Shown piece by piece: positions 22,764-41,821 of a stretch of 64,000 bases of DNA. Every line of letters starts with the position of its first letter. Within the stretch, counting starts at the first letter, position 1. The notes under the pieces were generated by a model. It searched no databases and had not been told where the DNA came from. It saw nothing but the letters and a program-made list of their open reading frames with translations. A program made the position numbers and the translations under genes. This stretch comes from a virus (lineage: Duplodnaviria; Caudoviricetes). The stretch covers positions 1 to 64,000 of IMG/VR virus record IMGVR_UViG_3300049988_000118, one strand, 5' to 3'.

Positions 22764-23931
22764 TGGGCCTTCTCAGCCGGATGTTCGGCGGCGCCAAGCG
22801 AGGTGCCGCGCGCGCCTTCTTCGCCCCAGGCTTCGGCTACGAGGGGGCACGCTTTTCGCGCCGGCTTCGCAGCTGGCTGCCGGAGCGCGCCAGCATCAAC
22901 GCGCTGCAGGCGCAGGGCGGCGAGCTTCTCCGCGCCCGCGCCCGCCAGCTGGTGCGCGACAACGCCCTGGCCGCGTCCGCGATCGACACGTGGGTCGGCT
23001 CCGTCGTGGGCGACGGCATCACGCCGTCTCCGACGATCGACGACAAGGCCCTGAAGACGGCCATCAAGGAGGCGTGGCTACGCTGGACCGACGAGGCCGA
23101 TGCCGACGGCCTGACGGATTTCTACGGCCTGCAGGCCCTCGTCGCCCGGTCGATGTTCACCGGTGGCGAGTGCTTCGTCCGGTTTCGGCCTCGCCGGATC
23201 GAGGACGGGTTCAGCGTTCCGCTGCAGCTTCAGATCTACGAGGCCGAGCAGCTGCCGCTGTCCTTCAACGTGCAGCGCTCGGACATCGGCAACGAGATTC
23301 GACACGGCATCGAGTTCGACCGGATCGGCCGGCGCCTCGCCTACCACTTCCTGAAGGTCCGGCCCGGCGACGGCGCCTATGCCTACGGCCTGGAGAATGG
23401 CGATCGCGTGCGCGTGGCGGCTTCCGAGGTCATGCACATCTACCGCCCCCTGGAGGCTGGACAGATCCGAGGGCAGACGCAGCTCGCCGCCGCGATGGTG
23501 CGGATGCACCTGCTCGACAGCTACGATGACGCCGAGCTCGACCGGAAGCGCGTCGCTGCGATGTTCGCAGGCTTCATCAAGAAGAACGCCATCGGCGACC
23601 CGCTCCCGGTCCCGGCCGGGTCCGACGCCTTCGGCGGTTTCGGTGGCGTGGGGGATCAGCCGCCTCCGATGGAGATCGAGCAGACCGTCGCCGACATGGA
23701 ACCGGGCACGATGAACGTGCTCAACCCCGGCGAGGAGATCACGTTCTCGAACCCGGCCGACGTCGGCGGCTCCTACGAAGCCTTCATGTATCGGAACCTG
23801 CTCGCCATCGCGGCGGGGTGTGGCGTTCCCTACGCGGCCATGACCGGCGACCCGAGCAAGGGCAACTTCTCGTCCCAGCGCAGCATCGAGCTCGAATACA
23901 AGCGCCGGGTCTCGCAGTTCCAACATCAGAC
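22763..23931 (+). pseudogene. Lambda-family portal protein, 5' part (interrupted by the satellite)
   Basis: LRARARQLVRDNALA, GECFVR, HGIEFD, QIRG, GNFSSQR motifs; the frame ends at a premature TAA (23957-23959) inside the insert. Confidence 0.95.
23922..23931 (+). repeat. attL core AACATCAGAC
   Basis: Direct repeat with 41812-41821 exactly at the portal breakpoint. Confidence 0.92.
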
Positions 23932-23967
23932 TATGTGCTTTGGGCTAAGCCCTTCGTAAATAACGAG

Positions 23968-23993
23968 AAAGCCGCTTTCGGGCGGCTTTTTCT
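23968..23993 (+). terminator. Rho-independent terminator just inside attL
   Basis: AAAGCCGC-TTTCGG-GCGGCTTT followed by TTCT. Confidence 0.75.
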
Positions 23994-24061
23994 GTGGGCG
24001 CGCGGGTGGCCTGAGAAGTCTGCCTAAGTCGTTGAAGTCCCATGAGGACCGGCGGCGCCAC

Positions 24062-24102
24062 GCGACATGCGCGCGACATTCGATGCGACAACGAACGCGA
24101 CA
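24062..24102 (+). promoter_or_regulatory. Four GCGACA repeats (candidate integrase arm or Xis sites)
   Basis: Copies at 24062, 24073, 24085 and 24097; the same hexamer occurs at 41722 and 41744 near attR. Confidence 0.55.
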
Positions 24103-24116
24103 AAATCGGAGGGCCT

Positions 24117-24329
24117 ATGTCCATGCACCCTGAGCAGGATTTGCTCTACGGCGTCCCTGCCATTGCGACTTTCCTCGGCATCCGGCCACGTCAGGCCAAG
24201 CACCGAGTTGCAACGGGCGAGATCCCCTCGTTCCGCATTGGGGAATCCATCTGCGCTCGCCGCTCAACTCTGACGGCGTGGCTTGCCGAGCGCGAGGCCG
24301 AGGCCCAGCGGAGCCGGTCCAATGCCTGA
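24117..24329 (+). CDS. AlpA/excisionase-like HTH protein
   Basis: LLYGVPAIATFLGIRPRQAKHRVATGEIPSFRIG...LTAWL; first gene inside attL. Confidence 0.8.
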   Translation: MSMHPEQDLLYGVPAIATFLGIRPRQAKHRVATGEIPSFRIGESICARRSTLTAWLAEREAEAQRSRSNA

Positions 24330-24645
24330 CATCGCCAACACCAGCCTGTCCCCGGTCACGGCCAACCCGACCGCCCACCGCAACACTGATGTCGCGCGCT
24401 TCGTCTGCCAGATCGGCGGCATCCGTCTCACGGGTGTCCGGCTGATGCGGATGCCCAACGGCGGCCACTTTGCCCAGCCGCAGTTGCGAACGAAGGGCAG
24501 GGGCACCCCGTCCGTCGGTACGACGATCACCGACCCGAACCTCATGAGCGCCATCACCTACGCGGCGCTCGCCCGCCTCTCCACGACGGACACCGACACG
24601 GCCGACGAAGGCCACAGGCACCGTGCCGTCCGCCGCCGGACTTAA
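24322..24645 (+). CDS. Hypothetical protein, weakly SpoVG-like
   Basis: GIRLTGVRLMRMPNGGHFAQP resembles the SpoVG beta strands. Confidence 0.45.
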   Translation: MPDIANTSLSPVTANPTAHRNTDVARFVCQIGGIRLTGVRLMRMPNGGHFAQPQLRTKGRGTPSVGTTITDPNLMSAITYAALARLSTTDTDTADEGHRHRAVRRRT

Positions 24646-24934
24646 CCCCGACCGCCGAGCCGATCTCGCCGACGAGATCGCCGACCTCCGGCACCGGCTG
24701 GCCTGCATCGAGGCCGAACTAGGCTTAGGCTCGCCAGGATTGGCCCAGGACGGGCGAGACCCGTTCGCCGAGGGCCATCTCACCTTGCAGCGAGCCGCGG
24801 GCGCCTGGGGCGTCACCGACGAGGCGGCGCGGAAGAGGGCGCTTCGTCTCGCATCGCTGGGGATGGCCGAGCGGCGCCGGCCCGGCGGCTGGCGGATCTC
24901 GACAGCCGGTGTACGGTTCTATCTCGGAGGGTGA
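24623..24934 (+). CDS. Hypothetical HTH protein
   Basis: LTLQRAAGAWGVTDEAARKRA HTH-like segment. Confidence 0.55.
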   Translation: MPSAAGLNPDRRADLADEIADLRHRLACIEAELGLGSPGLAQDGRDPFAEGHLTLQRAAGAWGVTDEAARKRALRLASLGMAERRRPGGWRISTAGVRFYLGG

Positions 24935-24937
24935 CCC

Positions 24938-25444
24938 ATGCCGGACTATTCAGCGGAGATCGGCCGGGTGCTGGCCGAGCGCGACGGCGTGGATCCGCAC
25001 GGGGACATCGCCGTGATGACCCGGGCGCTGATGAAGCGATTCCCCGGCGTCACCACCGAGATGATCTTGCGCGGTTGGGAGATCGCACGGGAGATCATCG
25101 CCACCGACGCCAGGATGGCACCGAGCGTCCGGAAGGTGCCGGTGGTGTTCGGGGAGCCGACCTTGGCTTGGCGTTGCACGGAGCTGGATCGGCTGTGGCT
25201 GAGCGCCAACGGCCGCGCCTACTTCATCCGCCCCGCGCTTGAAAACGAGACCTGGACCCTCGGAAAAAGCCTCCCCGCCGGCATGACCGCTCTTGCAATC
25301 GTCCGGGGCACCGATGGGTCGACGATCGCCTTCGCGTGCCGCGACCCCAGCGCGCTGACCGAAGCCTCGGACGATGCCCTTGCCGGCGTGTTCGATGACG
25401 AGATCGACGCGGCCGTCGAGCGGACCGCGCGCGGGCCGGAATGA
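24938..25444 (+). CDS. Hypothetical protein
   Basis: 168-aa ORF with GGAGG RBS. Confidence 0.6.
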   Translation: MPDYSAEIGRVLAERDGVDPHGDIAVMTRALMKRFPGVTTEMILRGWEIAREIIATDARMAPSVRKVPVVFGEPTLAWRCTELDRLWLSANGRAYFIRPALENETWTLGKSLPAGMTALAIVRGTDGSTIAFACRDPSALTEASDDALAGVFDDEIDAAVERTARGPE

Positions 25445-25557
25445 TGGCTCGCGCACGTCAGCGGGCAGGAGAATGGCCCGCCGGAGCTGGCGATAGGTTT
25501 TAGCCCCGGCAGGTAGCGGGTGCGGGGGAAAGCACTCTTGCGGTGATTCCGAGACAG

Positions 25558-25992
25558 CTAGACGGCCGTACCGTCGAACCACGCCAGGACGCGTCCTTCC
25601 AGCAACCCGCGGAAGAGTTCGTAATCACTTGAGGCATATTTCGGCCCGCGACCGGAGGATCTTCCGTTGATCCATGGGTCTTCAGTGCCAATACTGTTTT
25701 CCCACAATCCAAATGCGAAGGCGGTCTGCTTGCAATTTGGGTCGGTCAACGTAACCGTTACGGTAATGCAGCCGCTTACGCCCTCGGCGCGGGCACTCGT
25801 ATATTTCAGATTGCTCGTCTCTGTCGGGTCGCTCGCCGAGATAGCATCAGCCATAGCATTCAGATCATTGAAGATAAAATGATACTTCTGCATTATATGA
25901 GCTTCGAGGCCGGCGCGAGCGACTGGCTCGAATCTGTTAATGTACCGCGCAATACTTGTTCGAAACTCTGAGTAATCCCGCTCGTTAGCCAT
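25558..25992 (-). CDS. Hypothetical cargo protein (low GC)
   Basis: Antisense, AT-richer than its flanks; AAGGAG RBS before MANER. Confidence 0.6.
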   Translation of the reverse strand: MANERDYSEFRTSIARYINRFEPVARAGLEAHIMQKYHFIFNDLNAMADAISASDPTETSNLKYTSARAEGVSGCITVTVTLTDPNCKQTAFAFGLWENSIGTEDPWINGRSSGRGPKYASSDYELFRGLLEGRVLAWFDGTAV

Positions 25993-26058
25993 ACTCACTC
26001 CTTCGGCGCCGGCACCCATACCGCGCTCTGCTTCCCATTCATATCGGAGCATCTCAGC

Positions 26059-26457
26059 ATGCCGAAGTCGAGACGCCGCCCGCAAGCGGCCGATTCCGCG
26101 CGCCTGCCCGTCGTCCCCGAGGACTTCGAGGCGGTGACTGAGGCGGATCGCCGGTTCTTCCTACGGTATCCGCAGCGGTCCTATCGGGTTCGGCATACAA
26201 GCCGGGCAGAGATAGACCAGGGCGCACGCGCCGGCAGTGCGTTCGAGGCGCCTTACGCCAAGTTCCGCTGGTTCACCGCGATCCGACAGGTGGCGCCGGG
26301 GTGTCGGCTGCGTGTGTATCTCCAGGCGCCCGCGCTGTGCGAGACGGACATACCGGAAGCACTGGCGGCCGATATCTACCATCGGTTCGAGGGGCAAAGC
26401 GCTCGCGACACGACAATTCTTATGATGGATGCCCTGAGAAAGGCGGGCGCCCTATGA
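26059..26457 (+). CDS. Hypothetical protein upstream of satellite primase
   Basis: 132-aa ORF, ATGA-coupled to the primase. Confidence 0.6.
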   Translation: MPKSRRRPQAADSARLPVVPEDFEAVTEADRRFFLRYPQRSYRVRHTSRAEIDQGARAGSAFEAPYAKFRWFTAIRQVAPGCRLRVYLQAPALCETDIPEALAADIYHRFEGQSARDTTILMMDALRKAGAL

Positions 26458-28751
26458 CGACCGCCGCCGCGGGTGAGCGCCCGCCGAAACCCGCCTATCA
26501 GCCCTTCACCGGCCTGCCGGACTTGCCGGCGCTGTGCGAGATGCGCGCCCGGCCTCAGTGGCTTGCCTGGGACTACGTGTGGCGCCCGGAAAAGGCGAAG
26601 TGGGACAAGCCCCCAATGAACGCCCGGACGGGCGGGGCCGGCTCGTCAACCGACGCCTCGACGTGGTCCACCTATGACCAGGCCGCGGCGCGTGCCTCTC
26701 GTGAGGGGCTGCCAGGCGTCGGCTACGTCCTGTCGCCGGAGGTCGAGGACAGCGGTGTCGACCTCGACAAGTGCCGCGATCCCGAGACGGGTATACTTCA
26801 GGCATGGGCGCAGGTGGCCGTCGATTTCGCCGAGACCTACACCGAGGTGTCGCCGTCCGGTCGCGGGCTGCGCTTCTTCGTCAAGGGGTTAGTCGACGGT
26901 CGCAAGATCGATGCGGCCCAAGTGGAGATCTACACCAAGGGCCGATACCTGACCGTCACCGGGCAGCATATCCCTGGCACGCCCACGGAGATTCGGGAGG
27001 CGCCCCGGCTCATCGCCTACCTTCAGGAGCGCGCCGACCAGTTCCGAGAGGTCGAGCGTGCCGCCGCTGATCGCGCCCGAGAGAACGAGCGCAAGAAGGC
27101 CGAGAAGCATGCCGCCCGCGAGCCCCGCCCTGAGCCGGGCCCGACAGTCAGCGAGCGGGCCTCGGCGAGCGCTCGGCAGCGTGGTCCGCGCGAGGGCGGC
27201 GACTTCTGGCGAACCGTCAACGACCGCGCCCTTGCGAACCTTGGCGCATGGGTCCCGAGCGTGTTCCCCGGCGCCCGTTGGCAGGCTGGCACAGGCGCCT
27301 ACCGCGTTGAGCAAAGCGCGCTTGGCGAGGGCTACGAGGAAGACCTGTCCCTGCACCCGGACGGCATTCGGGACTTTGGCAGCGGTGACATGGGAGACTC
27401 GCGCGACGGCGCGCGGACGCCGATCGACGTGGTGGAAGCCTACCTGCCGGCGAGCGACGCCGCGGCGGCGGCCATGTGGCTGTGCGATCGGCTCGGCATC
27501 CGGCCCGAGGACATCGGGTGGCGTGGCGGGCGTAACGAGGGTGCGGAGCGCCCGCGGTACGAGGGGCCCCAATCCGATCCGGGCCCCACCGCCGAGTCGC
27601 CGCCGGCATTCCGGGCGCGTCCGTTCGTGTGGAAGGACCCGCACACCCTGCCGATGCGCGAATGGCTTCTCGGCCGGCACCTGATCCGAAAATACACGAG
27701 CGCCACCGTCTCGCCGGGTGGCCTGGGCAAGTCGTCCATCATCATCGTGGACGCGCTGGCCCTCGTGACGGGTCGCAACCTCATCGGACACCAGCCGCAT
27801 GGACGTCACCGGGCGATGATCTGGAACGGCGAAGACCCGATGGACGAATTGCAGAAGCGCATCACGGCGGCCTGCCTCTATTTCGAGATCGACCGGACCG
27901 AGATCGAGGGGCGCTTGTTCGTCAACTCCGGACGCGACGACCCGATCACGGTGGCGAGAATGCACAGGGGTGACGTGGTGATTGCCGTGCCGGTGGTGGA
28001 CGCTCTTAAGGCGACCATCTTGGCGAACGAGATCGACGTCGTGTTCGTGGACCCGTTCGTGTCCTGCCATGAGGTGACGGAGAACGACAACAACGCCATT
28101 GATCGTGTGGCGAAGCTGTGGGGCCGGATCGCAGGCGAAACGAATTGCAGCATCGAGCTCGTCCACCATTCGCGGAAAACCGGCGGCGCCGAGATCACCG
28201 TCGAGGACGCGCGCGGCGCCGTGGCTTTGCTCGCCGCGGTTCGCTCGGCCCGGACCCTCAACGGCATGCAAAGGGACGAGGCTGAGAAGTGGGGTATTAC
28301 GGATCGCGGGCTGTATTTCCGAGTGGACAACGGCAAGGCAAATCTCGCCCCGCCGCCGTCTGAAGGCTCGGCGTGGTTCAAGAAGCAATCCGTTTCCCTC
28401 GGCAACGGCGGCAGCGTTGGGAGCATCGTGCTCGACGGTGACAGCGTTGGCGTGGTGGCAGCGTGGGAGCCGCCGAACCCAATGGATGGCGTGTCAGTCG
28501 ATGATCTGAGAAAAGCTCAGGCAGCGACAAGGGAAGGCCGCTGGCGCGAGAACTCACAGGCTCGCGACTGGATCGGCAAGCCGATCGCCTACGCCCTCAG
28601 GCTCGACGCAGACAACAAGGCCGACCGCGCCCGCATCAAAGGGATGCTCGCCGTCTGGATGAAGACTGGCATGTTCGTGGCCGTCACCGGCAAGGACGAC
28701 AAGGCGATGGACCGGACCTTCATTGAGGTTGGCGAGAGCGCAGTCGACTGA
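26454..28751 (+). CDS. Satellite primase-polymerase fused to AAA_25 (RepA/DnaB-like) helicase
   Basis: AEP motifs (DLDKC, EVSPSGRGLR, YLTVTG); Walker A SPGGLGKS, VFVDP, LVHHSRK. Confidence 0.88.
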   Translation: MTTAAAGERPPKPAYQPFTGLPDLPALCEMRARPQWLAWDYVWRPEKAKWDKPPMNARTGGAGSSTDASTWSTYDQAAARASREGLPGVGYVLSPEVEDSGVDLDKCRDPETGILQAWAQVAVDFAETYTEVSPSGRGLRFFVKGLVDGRKIDAAQVEIYTKGRYLTVTGQHIPGTPTEIREAPRLIAYLQERADQFREVERAAADRARENERKKAEKHAAREPRPEPGPTVSERASASARQRGPREGGDFWRTVNDRALANLGAWVPSVFPGARWQAGTGAYRVEQSALGEGYEEDLSLHPDGIRDFGSGDMGDSRDGARTPIDVVEAYLPASDAAAAAMWLCDRLGIRPEDIGWRGGRNEGAERPRYEGPQSDPGPTAESPPAFRARPFVWKDPHTLPMREWLLGRHLIRKYTSATVSPGGLGKSSIIIVDALALVTGRNLIGHQPHGRHRAMIWNGEDPMDELQKRITAACLYFEIDRTEIEGRLFVNSGRDDPITVARMHRGDVVIAVPVVDALKATILANEIDVVFVDPFVSCHEVTENDNNAIDRVAKLWGRIAGETNCSIELVHHSRKTGGAEITVEDARGAVALLAAVRSARTLNGMQRDEAEKWGITDRGLYFRVDNGKANLAPPPSEGSAWFKKQSVSLGNGGSVGSIVLDGDSVGVVAAWEPPNPMDGVSVDDLRKAQAATREGRWRENSQARDWIGKPIAYALRLDADNKADRARIKGMLAVWMKTGMFVAVTGKDDKAMDRTFIEVGESAVD

Positions 28752-28753
28752 GC

Positions 28754-28879
28754 TTCCACACCCGAGGTTCGGGCCTTCGCGCGTCCACACCCCACCCCAC
28801 ACCCCTATAGGGGTGGTGGTGTGGAATGGAGTTTCCACACTTCCACACCATTCCACACCACGCCTCGCAAGGTGTGGGA
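28754..28879. other. Putative satellite replication origin (TTCCACAC iterons + 14-bp palindrome)
   Basis: About 8 CCACAC/GTGTGG copies and the perfect palindrome ACCCCTATAGGGGT (28801-28814) directly after the primase stop. Confidence 0.65.
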
Positions 28880-28996
28880 GGCGACGACACGGCATGCTGT
28901 CACGATGGCCCTAATGCACGTGGTCGGGGACGATGCGGCTTGATGCATCCCGGGCGACCTGCGGTGTCACCCGGGATACCTGGTTCGTGAGCGGCG

Positions 28997-29365
28997 CTAG
29001 ACCCGATTGAACTCGCGTGCGTGCAAGTTGCTACCCGCGCGCACCATCGTCACGTTGAGCCGCTTGAAGCACGCCAGGAAGTCGGCGAGCGACAGGGGAA
29101 CGTCGACAGCGACCAGATCGATCGGCCCGTCCTGAGGCATGGCCTTCGTGGCCTCGTCGTAGCTGTTGCCCAGGGCATAGTGGGCCGTCAGCTTAGTGGA
29201 CCCGTCTACCTCGCTCTGCCAGAGGTCGAAGGCCACGAGGAAGCGGCCGGCAGGGGCAAGCCCGCGGGCAGCGAGCGTCGCCCCCAAGTCATCGACGGCG
29301 GCATTGTCGGCCGCGGCCGAGCCCTCCCAATCGCCGTACTGCGTCTCAGCCTGCAAGCGCTCCAT
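28997..29365 (-). CDS. Hypothetical cargo protein
   Basis: Antisense ORF with GGAG RBS; acidic, globular-looking. Confidence 0.55.
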   Translation of the reverse strand: MERLQAETQYGDWEGSAAADNAAVDDLGATLAARGLAPAGRFLVAFDLWQSEVDGSTKLTAHYALGNSYDEATKAMPQDGPIDLVAVDVPLSLADFLACFKRLNVTMVRAGSNLHAREFNRV

Positions 29366-29453
29366 GACCATGCTCCGTACAACCGTGGGCGGACGGCATA
29401 CGACCAAGCGGAGGCCGGGCCTAGGGGCCAAGCGGCGATCGTCACGGAGACCC

Positions 29454-29574
29454 GCACGTTCCTCGGTGGGTAGGCCCTCCGACCCCGCCCCGCATGCTGC
29501 GCCTCACTACCGCAGCGCACAATGGGTCCTCCGGAGACACCCCACCCCTCTGCGGGCAGAGTTGCTCCCGACTT
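29454..29574 (+). repeat. Satellite copy of the prophage cos region (121 bp, 100% identical to 19844-19964)
   Basis: Base-by-base identity at offset 9610; GGGTCCT at 29524-29530, dyad at 29548-29561; upstream of the satellite terS. Confidence 0.9.
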
Positions 29575-29656
29575 TCGGCTCTCTGCAAGTTTGCCAAAAA
29601 TAGGGGGGGCCGCTTCTTTTCGGTCCCTCGAAGCCTCGCTCCCGATGGAGAAACCG

Positions 29657-30175
29657 ATGAACGAGACCGCTTCGAACGCCGAGATGATGGAGCTGTTCGG
29701 GGTCTCAGACCGGACCGTCGCGAAGCACGCCGCCAGCGGGATATTCGTGCGTGTTGGCCGCGGCCAGTACGACGTGAAGGCCTCGATCCGCACCTACGCT
29801 GAGCACCTCCGCAGCGCCGCATCCGGGCGGCCCAGCACCAACGAAGAGCTGCGAGCCGAGAAGATTCGACTGACCGCCGCCCAAGCTGACCGCGCAGAGA
29901 TGGACCGGGACGCCGAGGCCGAGGTGATGGTCAACGTGAAGGAATTCGACGACGCGTGGGGCCATGAAATCGTCAAGCTTCGGCAGGGGTTTCTCGGCTT
30001 GGCAAATAAGATCGCGGAGGCTCACCCCCACTTCACGCGCCACGAGATCCACACCATCGACGAAGTGATCCGCGCGATGATGGAGCGGGTTGCCGACGAT
30101 GCCGATACACGCCTGGAAATCGCTCAGGCCAAAGAAGACAAGGGCGGAAAGTCGCGGCGCCGGTCCCGCCGCTGA
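29657..30175 (+). CDS. terS: Satellite terminase small subunit (Nu1-like)
   Basis: wHTH (MMELFGVSDRTVAKHAASG...GQYD), ELRAEKIRLTAAQADRAEM coil; C-terminus aligns with prophage TerS. Confidence 0.88.
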   Translation: MNETASNAEMMELFGVSDRTVAKHAASGIFVRVGRGQYDVKASIRTYAEHLRSAASGRPSTNEELRAEKIRLTAAQADRAEMDRDAEAEVMVNVKEFDDAWGHEIVKLRQGFLGLANKIAEAHPHFTRHEIHTIDEVIRAMMERVADDADTRLEIAQAKEDKGGKSRRRSRR

Positions 30176-30276
30176 ACGCGTAATTCGATTTAATGGTTGG
30201 TTTTGGTTGGTTTTCCCCGGTCCAAAGTTGGTTTTCTCTCGTTGAATTAGGCCCTCGTCCGCCGGACACTTCCGGC

Positions 30277-30624
30277 ATGACAACCGCCAGCTTCCCCCGC
30301 TTCAGCACAACGCTGGACCACGAGACGGCCCGCGCCGTCACCCTCGCCGCCGCCGAACGGATGCAGAGTCGCGCCGACTTCATTCGTGACGCGGTGGCCC
30401 ACGAACTGAGCGTCCGACAGGCCGCCGCCGACGCCGTGCGATCCGAGGTCGAGCGCCAGGGAGCCGCCGCCCGCCGCCTCACCGCCGCACTGGATCGGGG
30501 GCCGGGTGCAACCTCCCGTCTCACCGCCTCGCGCGTCGCCGCGCTCGCCCGGCCGGCCGCGCACACCATCCCCAACATCTCCACCCTCGACGCGGCCGAA
30601 GCCGCCGGAAAGGCATGCCCATGA
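30277..30624 (+). CDS. Ribbon-helix-helix (CopG-like) protein
   Basis: RFSTTLDHETARAVTLAAAERMQSRADFIRDAV fits the RHH pattern. Confidence 0.6.
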   Translation: MTTASFPRFSTTLDHETARAVTLAAAERMQSRADFIRDAVAHELSVRQAAADAVRSEVERQGAAARRLTAALDRGPGATSRLTASRVAALARPAAHTIPNISTLDAAEAAGKACP

Positions 30625-33410: not shown

Positions 33411-33413
33411 ACA

Positions 33414-33851
33414 ATGCCCAAAAGCTCCACTCGGAAGCGCGCCCCTGCCGCGCGGTCCCCCGCCCCGGACCTCCCGCCGCCGCGCTTCGTCATGCCGGTG
33501 CCGGATCATACCGTTCCGCTGATCCACCCGGTCGAGTACGCCGGCCGAACCTTCGCCAGCATCACCCGTCGACGCCCGTCTAGCGCCGTGCTGGGCCGGT
33601 GGTTCGAGCAGTTCACCGAGGGCGCGGCGGTCCCGGGCGACACGAATCTCAACGTGCCGATTTTCGTCGACGAGGCCGGCGACCTCGTACCGGATGCGGT
33701 GCTCGGCTTTCTCGACGACGATGACCGGCAGGTCGTGTTCGAGGATGCTGACCGTTTTTTTCCCAAGCGGCTCGCGGTTGCCCTGGAAGCTCTGACGCAG
33801 GACTCAGCCCCTTCGTCTGGCGAACCTGCCGAGCCGACATCATCCGCTTGA
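33414..33851 (+). CDS. Satellite tail assembly chaperone (TAC)
   Basis: Aligns with prophage TAC (L..P.E..G......RR; PIF.D..G..PD.....LDDDD; F.P.R); lies directly before a TMP. Confidence 0.8.
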   Translation: MPKSSTRKRAPAARSPAPDLPPPRFVMPVPDHTVPLIHPVEYAGRTFASITRRRPSSAVLGRWFEQFTEGAAVPGDTNLNVPIFVDEAGDLVPDAVLGFLDDDDRQVVFEDADRFFPKRLAVALEALTQDSAPSSGEPAEPTSSA

Positions 33852-33943
33852 TAGGGGGCTCGCGGGCTGAGCTCGACGCCATGACCTGGGGCGAGTTCAC
33901 CCGCGAGTGGTTCGAAGCCAAACGCGTTTCTGAGGGCCGCTGA
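33755..33943 (+). other. -1 programmed frameshift (T TTT TTT) and gpE'/gpT-like extension of satellite TAC
   Basis: The -1 frame is open from the slippery site to TGA 33941-33943 and encodes RADIIRLIGGSRAELDAMTWGEFTREW. Confidence 0.8.
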
Positions 33944-33944
33944 G

Positions 33945-36635
33945 ATGTCGACACGCACCGCAACCCTGATCGCCAACTTGGTCGATCAGGTCTCAGGTCC
34001 GGCCAAGGGCATGGCCGGCGCCCTGAAAAGCACCGCATCCGCCCTCGATGCACTGAAGGCCAAGGCCGGCAAGATCGACGCCTTCAAGCAGGCGAGCAAG
34101 TCGCTGGACGACGCCGCGCAGAAGTTCAGGCTGGCGCAGCAGAACGTGCGCAAGATCAAGGCCGAGATGGAGGCCGGCGGCGACGGCGCCAAAAAGCTCG
34201 GGAGCGCGCTGAAGGGCGCCGAGCGCAACGCCGATGCGGCGCGGGCCGCGTTCAAGAATCAGGGGCAGGAGGTCCGCGCGTTGCGCACCGCCCTGGAGCA
34301 GGCCGGCGTGCCGCTCAACGCGCTCGCCGCGCACGAGCGCCAGTTGCAGACCCAGATCAACCACACCACCGAGGCGCTCAAGCGACGGAAGAAGGCGCTT
34401 GCGGATGTTGGCGCCGGGGCGCCGGCGAGCCGGATGGGGCCAGCCGCAGGCGGGCACGGGCCTCAAGCAGGGCGCGGGGGCGGTGGCACGGGCGCCGCCG
34501 GGAGCGCCGTAGTGGGCGCCGGCGTGGCGCGCTTCGGCGTGGCAGCGGCCGGAATCGGTGGGGGTGCCTACATCATCGGCGATCAGATCCGCCGGGCTGC
34601 GAAGTCGTCGATAGATTTCGAGCGCAGCATGATCGAGGTCGGCAAGGCCACCGACGCATCAGGGGCCGATCTCGAAAAATACTCCGAGGGCATCCTGGCG
34701 CTGGCCCGCGCCACCGGCAAGACGAAGGAAGACCTCGCCTCGATGCTCTCCTCGGCGGGCTTTGCCGGCCGCCCGAAGGAGGAGCTAATGAACTTCACCG
34801 AGTACGCGGCGAAAGCGACCGTGGCTTGGGGCACGAGCGCCGAAGACACCGGCCAGGCGTTGGCCGAGATCGGCAACATCTACGACGCGAATCAGAAGCG
34901 CATCGAGGAGATCGGCGACGCGATCAACACGATGGCGGACAGCTCGGCATCGAAGGAATCCGACCTACTCGACTTCATGCGTCGGGCGGGTGCCTCGTCG
35001 AAGCAGGCCGGCATCTCAGCCGAGCATATGCTGGCGTTCGGCGCCTCGATGAAGGAAGTGGGCGTCCGGACCGACGTGGCCGCCACCGGCTTCGAGGCAC
35101 TCCTGAACGTGATGAAGCTCGGCGAGGAGTTTTCGAAGAAAGCAGGCGAAGGTCTGAAGGATCTCGGCGTCAACTCCACCAAGATGCGCAAGGCGTTCGT
35201 CGCCAAGCCGGTCGAGACGATGCTTGGCCTGCTGGAAAAGATCAACAAGGTCGCGGACCCGCTCAAGAAAGCGGAGATTATGACCAACCTTTTTGGCAAG
35301 GAATATCAGGACGACATCGCCAAGATGCTCAACGCCTTGCCGAAGGTGAACAAGTACATCGGCATCATGAGCGATCAGGCGAAGATTGCCGCCGGTGGCG
35401 TCCGGTTCCAGTTCGGTCAGAACCTCGACAAGGACGTGTCGAAGATCGACCGGGCCACGCAATCCATCGACGTTCTCTACAAGCGCATCGGCGACCCGAT
35501 CAAGATCCAGATCGGCGGCATCTCCGAGCAGGTCAATACGCTCGTCGACAGCCTGGAAAAGGGCGACACGATCCTTCAGCGCCTGGTGAAGCGCCTCAAC
35601 GGCGGCGAAGCTGGCAAGCCGATCGAGCTGCCCGAAATGAATGGCGAAGGCGGCCTGGAAAAATGGTTCGAGGAAAAGCTGCCCTGGCTGAGCGGCAAGA
35701 AGTGGAACGACGAGGTCGACAAGCGGATCGGCAAGACCGGCGCTGACACGGACCGGATGAACCGCGAGGACGCCGACGGGCGGCGCGCCGCGGCCGAGCG
35801 GGAGGTGCTCGACCGCCCGGCCGACATCGAGACGAAGATCCAGCGCCAGCGCCGCGCACAGGATCAGGCCCGGCGGGAAGCGGTCGGGGCTACGGGGATG
35901 CGGCGCTCGCTGGCGGTGGAGCAGATCGGCAAGTCCGACGCCGAGGTGAAGCGCTTGGAGGGCGAGCTTGCCAAGGCTTGGGAGGCGATCGGAGCCCTTC
36001 GCGCTCAGCACAAGCGGGACAAGGGGGCGTTCAGCGTCGACGGTCCGGCTGCGAAGGACGTGGAGACCATCGGCCCGGGCCGCTTCGGGCTTGGCCTACA
36101 CGGCACGGACGTGCTGCCCTCGCGCCGGGTGCCGCTACCGCCGCCGCGACCCGCAGGGCTGACGCCCGGCGCAGAAATCACCATGCCGGAGATCAAGGTC
36201 GAGGTGGACACCTCCGGCTTCGATGAGGCCAGCCGCAAGGCCGATGAACTCGGTGCGCGGACCATCGCGCCGAAGGGCGACGGCGCCGGCTTGGCCCCCA
36301 TCGGGACAGCGGCCGACGAGGCCAAGGCGAAGCTCTCTGAAATCAATGCCACCACCGTCACACCGAAGGGAGATGCCGCAGGGCTCGCGCCGCTCGGGAC
36401 GGCCGCCGACGAAGCCAAGGCAAAGCTTTCGGCCCTCGCCGGGGTGAGCGTCGCGCCGACCGTCGACGCCTCATCCATCGCGGCGGCAGAAACCGCAGTA
36501 GATCGCCTCCTGGCGAAAATCGCCCGGGTCGGCCCAGCCCTGAAAGGCGCCAACGGGGCTGTTGCCTCGGGTGTCGTCCGTTCCGGCAACGTCGCCCAGC
36601 GCCTCCAGAACACTTTCACCGACAAGGGGATGTGA
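33945..36635 (+). CDS. Satellite tail tape measure protein (TP901-type core)
   Basis: AAKSSIDFERSMIEVGK...LALARATG core; N- and C-termini match the prophage TMP. Confidence 0.9.
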   Translation: MSTRTATLIANLVDQVSGPAKGMAGALKSTASALDALKAKAGKIDAFKQASKSLDDAAQKFRLAQQNVRKIKAEMEAGGDGAKKLGSALKGAERNADAARAAFKNQGQEVRALRTALEQAGVPLNALAAHERQLQTQINHTTEALKRRKKALADVGAGAPASRMGPAAGGHGPQAGRGGGGTGAAGSAVVGAGVARFGVAAAGIGGGAYIIGDQIRRAAKSSIDFERSMIEVGKATDASGADLEKYSEGILALARATGKTKEDLASMLSSAGFAGRPKEELMNFTEYAAKATVAWGTSAEDTGQALAEIGNIYDANQKRIEEIGDAINTMADSSASKESDLLDFMRRAGASSKQAGISAEHMLAFGASMKEVGVRTDVAATGFEALLNVMKLGEEFSKKAGEGLKDLGVNSTKMRKAFVAKPVETMLGLLEKINKVADPLKKAEIMTNLFGKEYQDDIAKMLNALPKVNKYIGIMSDQAKIAAGGVRFQFGQNLDKDVSKIDRATQSIDVLYKRIGDPIKIQIGGISEQVNTLVDSLEKGDTILQRLVKRLNGGEAGKPIELPEMNGEGGLEKWFEEKLPWLSGKKWNDEVDKRIGKTGADTDRMNREDADGRRAAAEREVLDRPADIETKIQRQRRAQDQARREAVGATGMRRSLAVEQIGKSDAEVKRLEGELAKAWEAIGALRAQHKRDKGAFSVDGPAAKDVETIGPGRFGLGLHGTDVLPSRRVPLPPPRPAGLTPGAEITMPEIKVEVDTSGFDEASRKADELGARTIAPKGDGAGLAPIGTAADEAKAKLSEINATTVTPKGDAAGLAPLGTAADEAKAKLSALAGVSVAPTVDASSIAAAETAVDRLLAKIARVGPALKGANGAVASGVVRSGNVAQRLQNTFTDKGM

Positions 36636-36693
36636 CGACGGCAGTCGGCCGCGCAGAGACGGTCAGTAAATGGCTTGTGACGATCTGGGCAGC

Positions 36694-37038
36694 CTACCGC
36701 GCGTCCACGATGCGACAGGACGCGGCGCCGAGAGTTTTCCCGTCCGCCTCGGCGATGCCGATGAAGTTCCGGCCTGTGACGGTAGCGCCCGGTTTGATGT
36801 TGCGGATAACCGAGGCCGCTTCACCCACGGGAGACCCGCCCGGACTTGCTACGGAGCAACTGACCTCGGCGACCTCCACCCGCGCCGAGCCGGCATTCCT
36901 CACCTGAATCACGGTCTCGACGGTCTCGCCGATGGCGCGCGGGCGTCCGGCCGTGACCGAGAGGTCATCCGCCATCCCCGCCGCGTGTGCGGCGTACGAT
37001 GACACGATCAGAGCGAGGGCGAGCAGGGCAGGGCGCAT
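36694..37038 (-). CDS. Secreted Ig-like hypothetical protein (FxLYD-like)
   Basis: Signal peptide MRPALLALALIVSSYAAHA; beta-rich with Cys pair. Confidence 0.6.
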   Translation of the reverse strand: MRPALLALALIVSSYAAHAAGMADDLSVTAGRPRAIGETVETVIQVRNAGSARVEVAEVSCSVASPGGSPVGEAASVIRNIKPGATVTGRNFIGIAEADGKTLGAASCRIVDAR

Positions 37039-37081
37039 GCCGGCAAGATAGCCGCCGGGGTGCAGTTGTCGAGACTAGCCC

Positions 37082-37234
37082 TCAACCGCGTACGGCATGC
37101 TGTTCACCCGCCGGGGCAGGCCGCTCGGCATGTGGATGCTTCCGGTTGAATCGGTACTTCAGCAGCGCGAAAAAACCGCCGCCTCCGACCACTGCCAAGC
37201 CGAGAGCGGACCATAGGAGCAGGGTAGGTGTCAC
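37082..37234 (-). CDS. Small single-TM protein (50 aa)
   Basis: GTG start overlapping the upstream GGAG; LLLWSALGLAVVGGGGFFALLKYR. Confidence 0.5.
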   Translation of the reverse strand: MTPTLLLWSALGLAVVGGGGFFALLKYRFNRKHPHAERPAPAGEQHAVRG

Positions 37235-37237
37235 GGA

Positions 37238-37609
37238 TCACTCCTCTGATTGCATCACAAGGAAATTTAGAACGTACGGGAAGATATGGAAGCCCAAAGA
37301 AATAACACACCATTGAACCGCGTTTCCGTCCAGAACCGCATCCGCGTCCCGAACGAACGGCACGATCGCCGCTGCCCCTAGAATGCCGGCCGCGAGAGTG
37401 TTGCAGAGCGCGTTGAAGTGCTTGAGGCACTCATTGATGCGCTTGGCGTCAAGCTTCCGCAATGCTGGGTTATCAGACGATGGCGGCGGTTTTCCTGAAC
37501 CAAAACTTGGAGAATTTATTTTTCGAGCCAGTGCCTCTGCTTCACCTTCAGCGAAGCTGTCAATCGATCGAAGGGGTGTTGTGCTTTTCTTAATGGCGCC
37601 AGTCATCAA
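37238..37609 (-). CDS. Two-TM membrane protein (cargo)
   Basis: Hydrophobic segments TLAAGILGAAAIVPFV and WCVISLGFHIFPYVLNFLV. Confidence 0.6.
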   Translation of the reverse strand: MMTGAIKKSTTPLRSIDSFAEGEAEALARKINSPSFGSGKPPPSSDNPALRKLDAKRINECLKHFNALCNTLAAGILGAAAIVPFVRDADAVLDGNAVQWCVISLGFHIFPYVLNFLVMQSEE

Positions 37610-37974
37610 CGTGACTGCCTTAAGATATTATAATTCATCAAATAAATCTCTCCCTTCGACGATCTAAAGGACATGATCACGAAGGATAGATAAAACTTGT
37701 GCGTTTCATCTTGAGCAAAGCTTTGGGTAATTCGCGCTCCGGTCGAGATTATATTGTCTCGACTTCGACGATGCACAAGAGATAGTATTTGATCATCGTC
37801 CAATTGAATTGTGGTTTCGGTATCCGTGCTTTCGTCGATACTCAACTTAAATCTGAATCGATATTCAGGATCGTCGTCGAAGGGCATCATAACGATGGTT
37901 TCTTCGGCGCCAAGAATAATTGAGCCTGAATGAATCAGCTCTCTTTTTCCGACTATGGCAGTGGGCCGAGTCAT
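37606..37974 (-). CDS. Hypothetical cargo protein (low GC)
   Basis: AT-rich ORF coupled to 37238..37609. Confidence 0.55.
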   Translation of the reverse strand: MTRPTAIVGKRELIHSGSIILGAEETIVMMPFDDDPEYRFRFKLSIDESTDTETTIQLDDDQILSLVHRRSRDNIISTGARITQSFAQDETHKFYLSFVIMSFRSSKGEIYLMNYNILRQSR

Positions 37975-38445
37975 ATGCAGATCCCAAGCGCGATCGGTGG
38001 GCAAGCCGCACACGGCTCGATCCAAGCGCTGTGCCTCTACCCTACGCGCACGACGAAACCCCCATCGCCTTGCAGGGCGTGGGGTTGTCGTGTCATGATG
38101 AACGTAGAGCCTGAGAACTCTCGCGACGGTCCCTTGCAGGGGATAGCGTCGCATCCTGTGACGGAAGCCCAACACCTTGCAGGGTGATGTGCCCCGTAAT
38201 GAACGTGCTCACCTCCCGGTGAGCGCGACCGGCTCACTATGCCGGGAGTGCGGCGACACGGTCAAGCAGAAATGCTCGACTGCGATACAAGAGCCCTTCG
38301 GGGTAAAGGTCGCCGCGCACGTTCTCACAGGCGTGTTCTCAGCCTCCCGGCGCCAGCACCGCATGCTGGCGTGGCCGAAAGCCCCTGAGAAGGCTCGAGG
38401 CCCCGGCCCTGAGAAGCCGGTTCGTACCTGTGAGAACCGAGATCC

Positions 38446-39135
38446 ATGACCACCACACAGACCCGCACGGCGCCTTCCCGGCGCGTGCCGCCGGCTGCCC
38501 GTCAGCCCGGCCCGGTGACGCTCGCCATACGCGCGCTGCGCCCGAACGAAGCCCCCACCTGGGAACAGCGTCAACGGGAGATCGATGCGGAGGAGCGGGC
38601 CACCCTGCGCGCCCTTCGCAAGCGCGTCGCTCAAGCCGTGTCGGACGGCATCGATTTCCTTGACGCAACCGGCAGGGATCCGGACCTCGATGCGGACTAC
38701 ACGACCACTGAGCGCGCCCCGGACGGCGGCCTACACACCGTCGGCCGCAGCACCGATGACGAGCCGAGCCTATGTGGCATCGGCGGCCACTTCGCGTTCG
38801 GGCATCAGCACGAGTTCCCGCAGACGGGTGGCGGCTGCGGTGAAAACGCCCACGACCTTGAGGGTGAGGACGAGCACGGGAGCGACTGCGACCGTGGGGA
38901 GGATTCGCTAGGCTCGCTCGGGGGCACCGCAAATGCTGTCGGCCACTCCCAACTGAATTGGGCGGGCGGCGGTGCGAACGATCTGGAGGCCGTGGACGAG
39001 GACGGCGGCGATATCCAAGACGCCCCTCACGATGGTGACGAGCGCGAGGACGGCGACGACAACGGCATCGGCGACCTTGAAGGCTTGCACGAACAGTTCG
39101 CCGGCACCCGGTACGCCTTCGCTGGTGCCGTATGA
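38446..39135 (+). CDS. Acidic Asp/Gly-rich hypothetical protein
   Basis: 229-aa ORF with DEPSL and DDNGIGD acidic motifs. Confidence 0.65.
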   Translation: MTTTQTRTAPSRRVPPAARQPGPVTLAIRALRPNEAPTWEQRQREIDAEERATLRALRKRVAQAVSDGIDFLDATGRDPDLDADYTTTERAPDGGLHTVGRSTDDEPSLCGIGGHFAFGHQHEFPQTGGGCGENAHDLEGEDEHGSDCDRGEDSLGSLGGTANAVGHSQLNWAGGGANDLEAVDEDGGDIQDAPHDGDEREDGDDNGIGDLEGLHEQFAGTRYAFAGAV

Positions 39136-39593
39136 GCGCCCCCGCATCGCGCCGGGGATTCCTCTCCGGTCTCGCCGTCCTGCCGTCTCTCACGGTAGTG
39201 GCAACTGCCGCTGCAAGCCCCGACGCGCCGTTACTTGATTTGGCGCCGCGCCTTGTCCCGCTGCTGGACCGATACGACCGGCTTTGGGCGGCGCAGGGTG
39301 GCACCTACGAGGCCGGCATCGCTGAAGTGCAGCGAGCAACGAGGAGAGGGGCATCTTGGGGGGAGGCACAATCGGCTTCTCCCTTGTGGCGGAAGTACAT
39401 GAGCGCCAGGGCGCCGGCCGATCGCATAGGGGACATAATCGACCCTCTGATTGAACCTTTATGGGATCATCGCGCGGTCACCGTGCCGGGCCTGTTACTC
39501 AAAGCCAGGATCGCCGCGACCTTCGATAGCTGGGAAGGCGACGTCTTCGATGACGTTCGCGCCATGGTGAAGGCAGGTACTCTCCTGACTTAA
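39132..39593 (+). CDS. Hypothetical protein with Tat-like N-terminus
   Basis: SRRGFL motif followed by a hydrophobic stretch. Confidence 0.6.
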   Translation: MSAPASRRGFLSGLAVLPSLTVVATAAASPDAPLLDLAPRLVPLLDRYDRLWAAQGGTYEAGIAEVQRATRRGASWGEAQSASPLWRKYMSARAPADRIGDIIDPLIEPLWDHRAVTVPGLLLKARIAATFDSWEGDVFDDVRAMVKAGTLLT

Positions 39594-39748
39594 CCCCCGG
39601 CCCGGCCGCCCGCACGGACGCCTCAGATCTGAGGGCGCGGTGCCGTACCGCGCCAATCCGGAGCCCGGCCGGGCCTCACGAACGCCGCTCGCGCAATCCC
39701 GCGCGGGCGGCATTCGCCGTACCGCACGGCGCAATTCGTGAGGATGCC

Positions 39749-40537
39749 ATGACCACGACACCCACGGTCCACATCACCGACGGCAAACCCATGGCGGACA
39801 GCCGTGAGATCGCCGCCACTTTCGGCCGGCAGCACAAAGACGTGCTCCGAGCCTATCGAGAGCTCGCATGCTCCGCGGATTTCAGGCAGCGCAATTTTGC
39901 GCCGTTTCATTCCAAGGACTTAAGCGGGTCCACCCTCTCCCACGTCCTGATGACCAAGAACGGGTTCGCCTTCCTCGTCCTCGGCTTCACCGGCGCGCCG
40001 GCCGCCGTCTTCAAGGAGGCGTACATCGAGCGGTTCGACGCGATGGAGGAGGCGCTACGGGGCAAGGCGATCCTGGCCGTTCCGACCACCTTCGCCGAGG
40101 CCCTACAGCTTGCCGCCGACAACCAACGGCAGGTTGAAGCGCAGGCCGCACAGATCGCCGTCCTGGCCCCACGCAGCGAGGCCCTGGCGACCATCGCCGA
40201 CGGGGAGGGGACGTTCTGCATCCGCGACGCGGCCAAGATGCTTCAGGTCACGGAAAGCGGCCTGACGGCCTACCTGTCGGGCAACGACTGGATCTATCGA
40301 CGCGAGCCCGGCGGGCCATGGGTGGCGACCGCCCGGCGGTTCGGACAGGGCTGGATCACCACGAAGGTGATTCCGGTCGAGGTCGGCAACGGCAAGGTCT
40401 GGAACAAGCCGCAGGCCCGCATCACGAGCGCCGGCTTGACGGTCCTGGCGATGCGCTTGGGCAAGCCCGTGCCGGCGGGCCTCGCAGCATCGGCCCCGCT
40501 CATCGAACACGCGGCTCGGCCGCAGGGAGGACACTGA
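39749..40537 (+). CDS. rha: Rha-family regulator fused to antirepressor KilAC/ANT domain
   Basis: DSREIAATFGRQHKDVLR, MTKNGFAFLVLGFTG, YIERFDAME; C-terminal FCIRDAAKMLQ...WIYRR. Confidence 0.88.
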   Translation: MTTTPTVHITDGKPMADSREIAATFGRQHKDVLRAYRELACSADFRQRNFAPFHSKDLSGSTLSHVLMTKNGFAFLVLGFTGAPAAVFKEAYIERFDAMEEALRGKAILAVPTTFAEALQLAADNQRQVEAQAAQIAVLAPRSEALATIADGEGTFCIRDAAKMLQVTESGLTAYLSGNDWIYRREPGGPWVATARRFGQGWITTKVIPVEVGNGKVWNKPQARITSAGLTVLAMRLGKPVPAGLAASAPLIEHAARPQGGH

Positions 40538-40538
40538 G

Positions 40539-41741
40539 ATGGCGAGCGTCAGGAAGCTCAAGAAGGATGACCCCGCGTCTCCATGGATCGTTGAATACAC
40601 GGACCCGTCGACGGGCAAGCGGGTGCGCAAGACCCCTAAGTCGGGACTGAAAAAGGACGCCGATGCCCTGCGTCGGAAGATCGAGGCGGAGATCGATGGA
40701 GGCATTCACACCGCCCCTTCGACCTCGCCCACGATCGCTGACCTGGGCGACACCTTCGTTCGGAACGCGGCGGAGCGCCTATCGGACGGCCGGATCGGGC
40801 GAAGCCGTTATGCCATCATCGTCTACACGGTGGAGAATTGCCTAAAACCGCACCTTGGTCGCATGAAGCTTTGTGGCCTGAAGCGCGAGGACGTGGAGGG
40901 CTGGTATAACTGGCTGCGCAAGGAAAAGAAGCTTGCCCCGGTCACGTCGAAAGGGCGGGTCATCATTTTCCAGATGATCGAGGACTTTGCGGTCCGCCGG
41001 TCATGGACGAAGCTGACGCCGGTGCGCGACTACCTCAAGGATCTCACCGGCATCCGGCAATCACGTGTGCGGACCTTCAGCGCGGAGCAGGCCGCGCAGG
41101 TGCTCGCGACTGCCGCCCATCGAGCCCCCGGCTTCAAGCTGCGGGCGCACGCCTACACCGAATGCATGGTTAACCTCGCGGCTTGCTGTGGCCTCCGGTA
41201 CGGGGAGATCCTGGGATTGTCCCTCGATGACGTGTTCTTCGATGACCGGCGCCTCTACATCCGGCACAGCCTCACGGACTGGGACGAGTTAAAGGGGCCG
41301 AAGACAGTCGCCGGCGTCCGCAACATTCCTTTGCCGCAGCACGTCGCTGACATGCTCACGGCCTGGATCGCCAACGGCTACGTGGCGAACGAGCGCCGGT
41401 TGCTGTTCCGGACATCATCGGGCGGCATCATCAGTGCCGCGAGCTTCCACAAGGCGACGTGGGGGCCGTTGCTGATCCGTGCAGGGCTCGGCGAAGGGAA
41501 GCGTTTCCACTTCCACGCCCTGCGCCATTTCGCGTCGAGCTGGATGATCGCGAACGGCCTGCCCGTGACCGACGTGGCGCGCCTCATGGGGCACAGCCAT
41601 TTCGACACGACGCTCCAGGTCTACGCGCACCCGGTCATCGCGAACCACCGGCACCAGGAGGCTTTCGACCGGATGGCGAGCAATCTGAAGCTGGAATTGC
41701 CTGCGCCAGGGGAGACCTCGCGCGACATGGCGCCGGCCTGA
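40539..41741 (+). CDS. int: Tyrosine recombinase/integrase of the satellite
   Basis: Catalytic residues GLRYGE (R), GPKT (K), HALRH, MGH, QVYAH (Y); ends 70 bp from attR. Confidence 0.95.
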   Translation: MASVRKLKKDDPASPWIVEYTDPSTGKRVRKTPKSGLKKDADALRRKIEAEIDGGIHTAPSTSPTIADLGDTFVRNAAERLSDGRIGRSRYAIIVYTVENCLKPHLGRMKLCGLKREDVEGWYNWLRKEKKLAPVTSKGRVIIFQMIEDFAVRRSWTKLTPVRDYLKDLTGIRQSRVRTFSAEQAAQVLATAAHRAPGFKLRAHAYTECMVNLAACCGLRYGEILGLSLDDVFFDDRRLYIRHSLTDWDELKGPKTVAGVRNIPLPQHVADMLTAWIANGYVANERRLLFRTSSGGIISAASFHKATWGPLLIRAGLGEGKRFHFHALRHFASSWMIANGLPVTDVARLMGHSHFDTTLQVYAHPVIANHRHQEAFDRMASNLKLELPAPGETSRDMAPA

Positions 41742-41811
41742 ACGCGACATAAATGCGGATGCGGCTGGACGCATCCAGCGTTTTCAATGACTTAGCACAT
41801 GGGTAAGAGTT

Positions 41812-41821
41812 AACATCAGAC
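41812..41821 (+). repeat. attR core AACATCAGAC
   Basis: Direct repeat with 23922-23931. Confidence 0.92.

Follow-up and report, generated by a model that had tools for sequence, protein, structure and literature searches.

The IMG/VR virus record IMGVR_UViG_3300049988_000118 (73,988 bp; its first 64 kb are the stretch analysed here, termed the window) contains a prophage whose portal gene is split by a 17,890-bp element. The element is most probably a phage satellite that resides within its own helper, its tyrosine integrase having placed it at a 10-bp site of the portal gene. It harbors a copy of the helper's cos and encodes its own small terminase subunit (TerS), ClpP-type protease-scaffold, tail assembly chaperone (TAC) and tape measure protein (TMP). 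It represents a new lineage in which two published strategies of satellites come together, embedding in the helper and possession of its own tail ruler.

Insertion into the portal gene and substitutes for helper parts

Two copies of the 10-bp core AACATCAGAC bound the element, attL at 23922-23931 (+ strand), which is within the helper portal gene, and attR at 41812-41821 (+ strand). The length of the element is 17,890 bp with a single repeat copy and 17,900 bp with both. The N-terminal portal piece (22763-23931, + strand) matches positions 2-354 of the 354 positions of the Pfam model Phage_portal_2, with the match extending over 22856-23923, and the C-terminal piece (41822-42188, + strand; 122 codons) continues the PHROG portal profiles. 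The left piece ends at position 405 of phrog_21 and position 108 of phrog_537; the right piece picks up at positions 408 and 108, respectively. Joining 23931 to 41822 gives a single open frame, which from the ATG at 22763 encodes a 511-aa portal protein. Given the continuity of the profiles and the restored 511-aa frame, the 17,890-bp element is a clean site-specific insertion, as anticipated by the original prediction of an att-bounded element of 17.9 kb. In the integrated state the portal gene is without its last 122 codons, and the truncated gene gains eight codons and a stop inside attL (MCFGLSPS-stop). A G+C-rich hairpin followed by a T-run (23968-23989) is located just inside attL, 3' of this stop. 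It was scored on the - strand by the hairpin search, its tail on the + strand is TTTTTCTGT, and it is likely a terminator of helper late transcription. Both insertion junctions are bridged at 100% identity by single Logan contigs from an independent assembly of a leaf-metagenome run, the probable source of the record, in which the depth of the element equals that of its flanks.

The cos copy of the element (29454-29590, + strand) was recognized by its identity to the helper cos core (19844-19980, + strand), the first 20 nt of which are the 3' end of a helper ORF (open reading frame). The two are identical over 121 nt (29454-29574 versus 19844-19964), and 132 of 137 nt match when the comparison is extended to 19980. 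Part of the exact copy is the 20-nt end of the helper ORF, which indicates that the cos was captured from this phage type. Within the copy are GGGTCCTCC and, after a spacer of 20 nt, the dyad CTCTGC-GG-GCAGAG; in both the element and the helper the cos is upstream of the true TerS start. The cosQ of lambda is GGGTCCT. The arrangement GGGTCCT(CC), a variable spacer of 18-20 nt and TGCGGGC is found upstream of a TerS-like gene in six relatives of the element, and also in a prophage of Methylobacterium sp. Leaf100. In lambda-like phages, the binding of TerS to cosB sets the specificity of initiation, and cosQ and cosN serve in termination and nicking (PMC4669245).

The TerS of the element (29645-30175, + strand; 176 aa, phrog_57) and that of the helper (20010-20621, + strand) are similar in the C-terminal 52 aa only, with 37% identity. 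Alignment of ten TerS proteins revealed two classes of N-terminal helix-turn-helix (HTH) domain; satellite and helper differ in class and have the C-terminal block in common. The C-terminus of Nu1, the TerS of lambda, docks on gpA. More broadly, the TerS proteins are mosaics: the N-terminal HTH and the C-terminal part each come in two classes, which occur in varied combinations across satellites and helper-type prophages. Some satellites retain a helper-like HTH with a changed C-terminus, and others show the opposite.

The proteins for head and tail assembly likewise have counterparts in the helper. The head protein encoded at 31963-33219 (+ strand; 418 aa), a ClpP-type maturation protease that carries a scaffold part at its C-terminus, is 45% identical over 425 aa to the protease-scaffold of the helper, which is encoded together with the decoration protein and the major capsid protein (MCP) at 42203-44847 (+ strand). 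A query with the element's ClpP in IMG/VR returned ordinary phage proteases only. The TAC gene (33414-33943, + strand) is of the P2 E/E' type; its frame 0 ends at 33851, the slip site T TTT TTT occupies 33755-33761, and the -1 frame stays open as far as 33943. The helper TAC gene (+ strand) starts at 58367, with the slip site T TTT TTG at 58738-58744 and a -1 frame open to 58920. The two TACs are 35% identical, their slip sites are in the same place, and their -1 extensions are homologous, which bears out the -1 frameshift first read from the sequence. The TMP of the element (33945-36635, + strand; PF10145, phrog_28) has 896 aa versus 968 aa for the TMP of the helper (58924-61830, + strand) and is thus 72 aa shorter. 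The first 28 residues of the two TMPs are identical at 20 positions and the last 91 are 44% identical, with about 23% identity between these ends.

Genes were assigned by Pfam and PHROGs searches of the called ORFs and by six-frame Pfam searches over the whole 74-kb record. By these searches the element has no gene for a capsid protein, portal, large terminase subunit (TerL), sheath, tube, baseplate or fibre. Across the record, the six-frame searches gave a single match each to Phage_cap_E and Phage_portal_2, both of them outside the element, and none to an HK97 capsid. The original prediction had listed an integrase, a primase-helicase, a cos copy, TerS, a ribbon-helix-helix (RHH) protein, a coiled-coil protein, ClpP, TAC and TMP, with no MCP, portal or TerL, and the profile searches and comparisons agree on each. 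The counterparts that it saw in the surrounding prophage were also found, namely cos (121 nt exact), ClpP (45%), the C-terminal part of TerS (37%), TAC (35%) and the ends of TMP. Some details required correction: the ClpP gene starts at 31963 instead of 31675, the TerS gene starts at 29645, and an 87-aa gene (31703-31966) and a 63-aa ORF (33220-33411) had been omitted from the gene list. The AlpA-like HTH that it named matches HTH_17 and excisionase-type profiles and does not match Phage_AlpA itself.

The insertion, the frame restoration, the cos identity, the kept slip site and the end-matched TMP are direct from the sequence, and the remaining steps of the mechanism proposed here are inferred. 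Upon induction, the integrase and the excisionase-type HTH protein would excise the element, with precise excision rebuilding the portal frame of the helper. The primase-helicase would then replicate the circle, and the Rha/Ant protein may derepress the helper. For packaging, the element carries the cosQ-like and cosN-like core of the helper, and the satellite TerS could recruit helper TerL to satellite DNA via a satellite-specific cosB. This recruitment is proposed because the C-terminal, TerL-docking end of the satellite TerS is helper-like and its N-terminal HTH is different. The ClpP protease-scaffold and/or a 363-aa coiled-coil protein encoded upstream of it may alter procapsid assembly by the helper capsid protein. 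The 17.9-kb genome is about one-third that of the helper, a size that would fit small capsids and trimers in full-size heads equally. The satellite TAC and TMP would replace those of the helper in otherwise helper-built tails, as in the Vibrio satellite PLE11, and with a TMP that is 72 aa shorter such tails would be roughly 10 nm shorter. The earlier proposal that the element swaps parts of its helper stands as far as the carried substitutes and the missing bulk structural genes are concerned; its assignment of functions in tail length and capsid size is still inferred.

A family of related elements and the rival explanations

The 363-aa protein (30615-31706, + strand) serves as the signature of a family. 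An AlphaFold2 model (mean pLDDT 66) predicts with confidence a coiled coil, at residues 26-153, and a small beta domain. The protein was found neither by an IMG/VR scan nor by tblastn against GenBank phages. A word search of 5.8 billion proteins revealed five relatives, and a profile search of 1.84 billion representatives returned 442 clusters at E <=1e-3, of which 24 were at E <=1e-30. Among 401 alphaproteobacterial species genomes, a profile built from 5 sequences had no match, and one built from 56 sequences had two weak partial matches to the coiled coil. Two side observations concern the gene itself. It contains an exact 30-bp tandem duplication near its 3' end (31605-31664), and a variant from a plant metagenome, about 93% identical in the TMP region, has a single copy of the 30-bp unit.

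Genomic contexts were read for nine relatives, one of which was too short to judge and two of which are without TAC and TMP. Seven distinct elements have a common order: a replication module, small ORFs, a TerS-size gene, the 363-like gene, a gene of 87-89 aa, zero to three small genes, TAC and TMP. Their signature proteins are 26-77% identical. The gene of 87 aa (31703-31966, + strand in the element) follows the 363-like gene in all relatives. Replication modules vary among the relatives (Toprim with AAA_25, AAA_25 alone, or Prim-Pol with D5_N), and integration modules are likewise swapped, with different integrases. One relative, L021, has a P4-type integrase adjoining a tRNA 3' fragment, so the family is not always embedded in a helper. 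Its TAC, TMP and gpD-like tail protein (phrog_52) are 53%, 63% and 63% identical, respectively, to those of the helper described here. ClpP was present only in the element among the contexts read, and in another relative, L027, the protease-scaffold is represented by its scaffold part alone. ClpP is therefore, by its distribution, an accessory and not a defining part of the family.

Capsid, portal and TerL genes were found in none of the relatives, in contexts of up to 18 kb. The check for homologous elements with complete structural sets thus found none, with the reduced module recurring in the seven distinct elements instead. It follows from their gene contents that these elements are a satellite family and not decayed prophages. 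The constant linkage of the 363-like gene to TAC and TMP is the reason to guess at a tail-related or interference role for the 363-aa protein. A wider proposal can be put forward tentatively: the elements may form an undescribed satellite family, defined by a helper-type cos, TerS, the 363-like protein, the 87-aa protein, TAC and TMP, in which embedding in the helper evolved independently of the enterobacterial helper-embedded elements and the coiled-coil protein is a new factor for interference with the helper or for redirection of assembly. The coiled-coil protein would then be, for example, an inhibitor of the helper tape measure or an external capsid scaffold.

Another arrangement was seen in L036 (10001-12760), which encodes a 919-aa protein whose N-terminal 217 residues are 363-like and are fused to a C-terminal part of no known kind. 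The L036 element has a CI-like repressor and genes of the MucR and GapR type, with no TAC or TMP called nearby.

There is a small but real chance that the element is a satellite embedded in its helper in which ClpP, TAC and TMP are recently captured passenger late genes of a helper, by late zone capture, and not adapted substitutes. Captured late-gene clusters are known from the late zones of phage-inducible chromosomal islands (PICIs) (Tommasini et al., PMC10111431). The restriction of ClpP to this member, with the scaffold part alone in another relative, is in line with such capture, as is the 53-63% identity of the TAC, TMP and hub of L021 to those of this helper type. However, TAC and TMP follow the 363-like gene even in relatives at 26-30% identity, which argues for selection. 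The diverged core of the TMP (about 23%) between ends that are 44-71% identical is the pattern of an adapted, compatible part, and the frames are intact with the slip site kept. A decayed second prophage inside the first, which has lost most of its structural genes and can no longer be mobilised, would account for phage-type late genes that are homologous to the surrounding prophage and for the fact that no excision was observed in contigs. This explanation is very improbable, since the reduced gene set recurs in at least seven diverged elements that differ in their integrases and replication modules. In addition, every gene is intact, the two copies of the target repeat agree exactly, the cos copy and that of the helper are identical, and no capsid, portal or TerL remnants were found in six-frame searches.

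Integration truncates the portal, and a stop codon with a hairpin after it comes to lie at attL, as would be expected of an integrative element that disables the prophage or incoming like phages through portal disruption, for defence or competition, and that is not transferred by phage. Such a function is hardly credible for the element, as it leaves the helper-identical cos, the helper-like TerS C-terminus and the helper-matched ends of TAC and TMP unexplained, and no known defence family was found. That the record is a chimera assembled from two phage genomes can be practically dismissed. The record is metagenomic and the shared cos repeat interrupts Logan contigs, yet when the run is assembled independently each junction is contained in one contig, with 100% identity, and neither a 10-bp target repeat nor exact frame restoration is a product of chimeric assembly.

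Several points nevertheless weigh against an embedded satellite that remodels its helper's heads and tails. No excised circle, restored portal junction (23931 to 41822) or packaged satellite DNA was found among the Logan contigs; these derive from two DNA runs and lose rare variants, and are thus uninformative on excision. Apart from the element's own integrase, searches of the whole 74-kb record gave no match to an integrase, a serine recombinase or an rve transposase. Given this and a CheckV completeness of 91%, the integration and immunity end of the helper is probably missing from the record, and the helper may or may not be viable. The host assignment given below is based only on TerL homologues. 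Foldseek searches of BFVD and PDB with the model of the 363-aa protein gave no significant match, with P4 Psu appearing only as a non-significant fold match (E 1.6). Finally, ClpP is missing from most relatives, so that a role in head size is no family trait.

Comparison with known satellites

The closest parallel in manner of integration is provided by the helper-embedded PICIs (HE-PICIs), of which 491 were described; they occupy nine lambda-cognate late genes, the portal gene included, with 14 integration sites in all (Tommasini, Mageeney and Williams 2023, PMC10111431). HE-PICIs are co-oriented with the helper, have identity blocks of 7-12 bp and have a cos segment in common with the helper; their late zones hold captured late genes of the helper, and PICIs with a CLP_protease gene are mentioned (PMC10111431). 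The element resembles them in that it splits a portal gene (at 23931/41822), has its main genes all on the + strand as the helper late operon does, and disrupts the target gene at a 10-bp identity block without a replacement sequence. It also has an integrase, an AlpA-type HTH protein, a primase, and a late zone with helper-derived late genes and the common cos segment. Yet HE-PICI integrases form a single clade, that of the 11capE integrase, and in pairwise comparison the integrase of the element is only 20% identical (E 0.002) to that of Eco567.11capE (L031:1204-2439), the E. coli NRG857c element taken as the HE-PICI reference. The primase and the HTH protein are likewise unrelated to those of 11capE. 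Given these differences, the element by sequence comparison is outside the HE-PICI clade, while working like an HE-PICI. Its integrase gene is at the far end, with attP between the int and HTH genes, and the insertion falls where the Pfam portal domain ends, not at the HE-PICI positions 21, 38, 227 or 241. Unlike HE-PICIs, the element encodes a TerS of its own as well as TAC and TMP, without a capsid gene, and its host is probably an alphaproteobacterium, not a member of the Enterobacteriaceae. The order of its parts (HTH, unknown genes, replication, late genes, cargo, Rha/Ant, int) fits the HE-PICI order Integration-Bro-Replication-Late only when circularly permuted and with Bro displaced.

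A tail ruler of the satellite's own has a precedent in PLE11, a Vibrio cholerae satellite of the PICI-like elements (PLEs). The Seed laboratory showed that PLE11 swaps in a TMP, a TAC and the hub BhuB, which results in chimeric tails that are about 10 nm shorter and evade PLE11's own inhibitor of the helper TMP (Nature 2026, PMC12987554). Putative tmp genes are also present in PLE-like elements and some capsid-forming PICIs (cf-PICIs) (PMC12987554), and a preprint describes TMP-carrying mycobacterial EPIP satellites (PMC12822802). Thus the statement in the original prediction that Vibrio PLEs have been reported to carry TAC/TMP genes proved correct, and its claim of a gene set without precedent did not hold in view of HE-PICIs (PMC10111431), PLE11 (PMC12987554) and EPIP (PMC12822802). 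Like PLE11, the element has its own TAC and TMP, and from its genes alone it seems to leave the tube, sheath, baseplate and fibres to the helper. The TMP length differs from that of the helper by 72 aa here and by 95 aa in PLE11. One relative adds a gpD-like tail protein. The gpD of P2 is the baseplate hub; if the gpD-like protein of L021 is a hub as well, its TAC, TMP and gpD-like protein would by analogy correspond to the trio of PLE11. No sequence relationship between PLE11 and the element is apparent. The helper here is a temperate prophage instead of a virulent phage, and the element is embedded in it and uses cos and TerS hijacking, with no Rta-like inhibitor identified. Whereas PLEs, the Vibrio elements of ICP1, have a large serine recombinase and PLE core genes, the element has a tyrosine integrase, and no serine recombinase was found in the record.

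The remaining known satellites share fewer features with the element. Like the cos-type PICIs and P4 (EcCICFT073, SaPIbov5, P4), it carries the helper cos and has a genome about one-third the size of that of the helper, but it has its own TerS instead of an Rpp-type adaptor. Its antirepressor-type gene is comparable to P4 epsilon. Among its Pfam and PHROG matches there are no homologues of Sid, Psu, Delta, Epsilon, alpha-primase or Cpm. Compared to Gram-negative PICIs (int, alpA, pri-rep, neither structural nor lysis genes, about 10-15 kb), the element has the integrase, an HTH_17 protein and a primase-helicase; Phage_AlpA is not matched, the size is 17.9 kb, TMP, TAC and protease are carried in addition, and the primase is unrelated to that of 11capE. 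With cf-PICIs it shares a head maturation protease and TerS, and some cf-PICIs have putative tmp genes; the capsid, portal, connector and TerL genes of cf-PICIs were not found in it. [quoted passage not shown]

If the element functions as proposed, late-gene embedding and tail-ruler swapping extend beyond Enterobacteriaceae and Vibrio to a plant-associated alphaproteobacterium, and their occurrence in an unrelated lineage with an unrelated integrase would show that these strategies are convergent. The compact conserved module defined by the relatives includes a coiled-coil protein and is a concrete target for studying how satellites redirect tail or head assembly. The presence of helper and satellite on one contig supplies the identity of the helper, which most satellite surveys lack.

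Remaining genes of the element, the helper and its host

The element starts with a 70-aa HTH_17 or excisionase-type (AlpA-like) regulator (24117-24329, + strand), which matches PF12728 (E 6.9e-5, below the gathering score), phrog_18541 (2.3e-12) and the phrog_66 excisionase profile (1.8e-4). It is followed by three ORFs without a family match (120, 103 and 168 aa; 24283-25444, + strand). The replication module is an 816-aa protein of primase and AAA_25 helicase (26301-28751, + strand; Pfam and PHROGs), the helicase half of which is 52% identical to that of L021. An ORF of 144 aa without a family match (28997-29431, - strand) precedes the cos copy. The RHH protein (30193-30624, + strand) encoded between TerS and the 363-aa protein is 86-89% identical in the relative L024, and the 63-aa ORF (33220-33411, + strand) is located between the protease and TAC genes. 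Downstream of TMP is a stretch of lower G+C content with three ORFs of 114, 123 and 189 aa (36694-38175, - strand) that are probably accessory cargo; PADLOC detected no defence family among the cargo ORFs. Two ORFs without a family match (229 and 153 aa; 38446-39593, + strand), a Rha/KilAC-ANT antirepressor-type protein (39749-40537, + strand; Pfam and PHROGs) and the tyrosine integrase (40539-41741, + strand), the sole integrase of the 74-kb record, complete the element. A query with the integrase had no match in IMG/VR and a single irrelevant match at 26% in the genome collection, and tRNA scans of the window and the relatives found none.

By gene content, the surrounding prophage combines a lambda-type head with a contractile tail of the P2 type. 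It encodes TerS, a lambda gpA-type TerL (20605-22506, + strand), the portal, a ClpP protease-scaffold, a decoration protein and an E-type capsid protein for the head and packaging, and baseplate, fibre, sheath, tube, TAC, TMP and U/X/D-like genes for the tail. Replication genes and a NusG-like regulator are upstream. The size of the helper genome is put at about 50.6-56.1 kb, about three times that of the satellite. The right end of the record, with UmuD/UmuC-like ORFs at about 70.1-72 kb, may be host DNA, and the integration module of the helper may lie past the left end.

The host is probably a phyllosphere Methylobacterium. The nearest named TerL homologues are from Methylobacterium, with 93% identity in sp. 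Leaf100 (partial sequence) and 70-73% in three named species. The DNA of the record is present in the leaf metagenome run, with a variant in the plant metagenome run, and no RNA run is listed for it. The helper MCP did not place the host, with a best identity of 47% in the 401 alphaproteobacterial species genomes.

The starts of the L023 and L024 contigs at the cos dyad were considered as physical cos ends. This was rejected, as Logan contigs of the leaf run break in the shared cos repeat too and the two starts are 5-7 nt before GGGC. Independent Logan contigs stop within the shared cos block (29483-29545) or at its margin. Contig ends at this block probably reflect a repeat that is common to the co-resident helper and satellite.

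Two morons of lower G+C content are located on the - strand between the helper tube and TAC genes (56998-58452), an SNase-like ORF of 310 aa and an ORF of 161 aa. SNase homologues with 75-77% identity adjoin the related satellites L021 and L027, and their position beside satellites suggests, on sequence grounds, an exchange of cargo between helpers and satellites. Another stretch of low G+C content (0.44-0.56) is found at 14000-16500, between the helper primase gene and the genes downstream of it.

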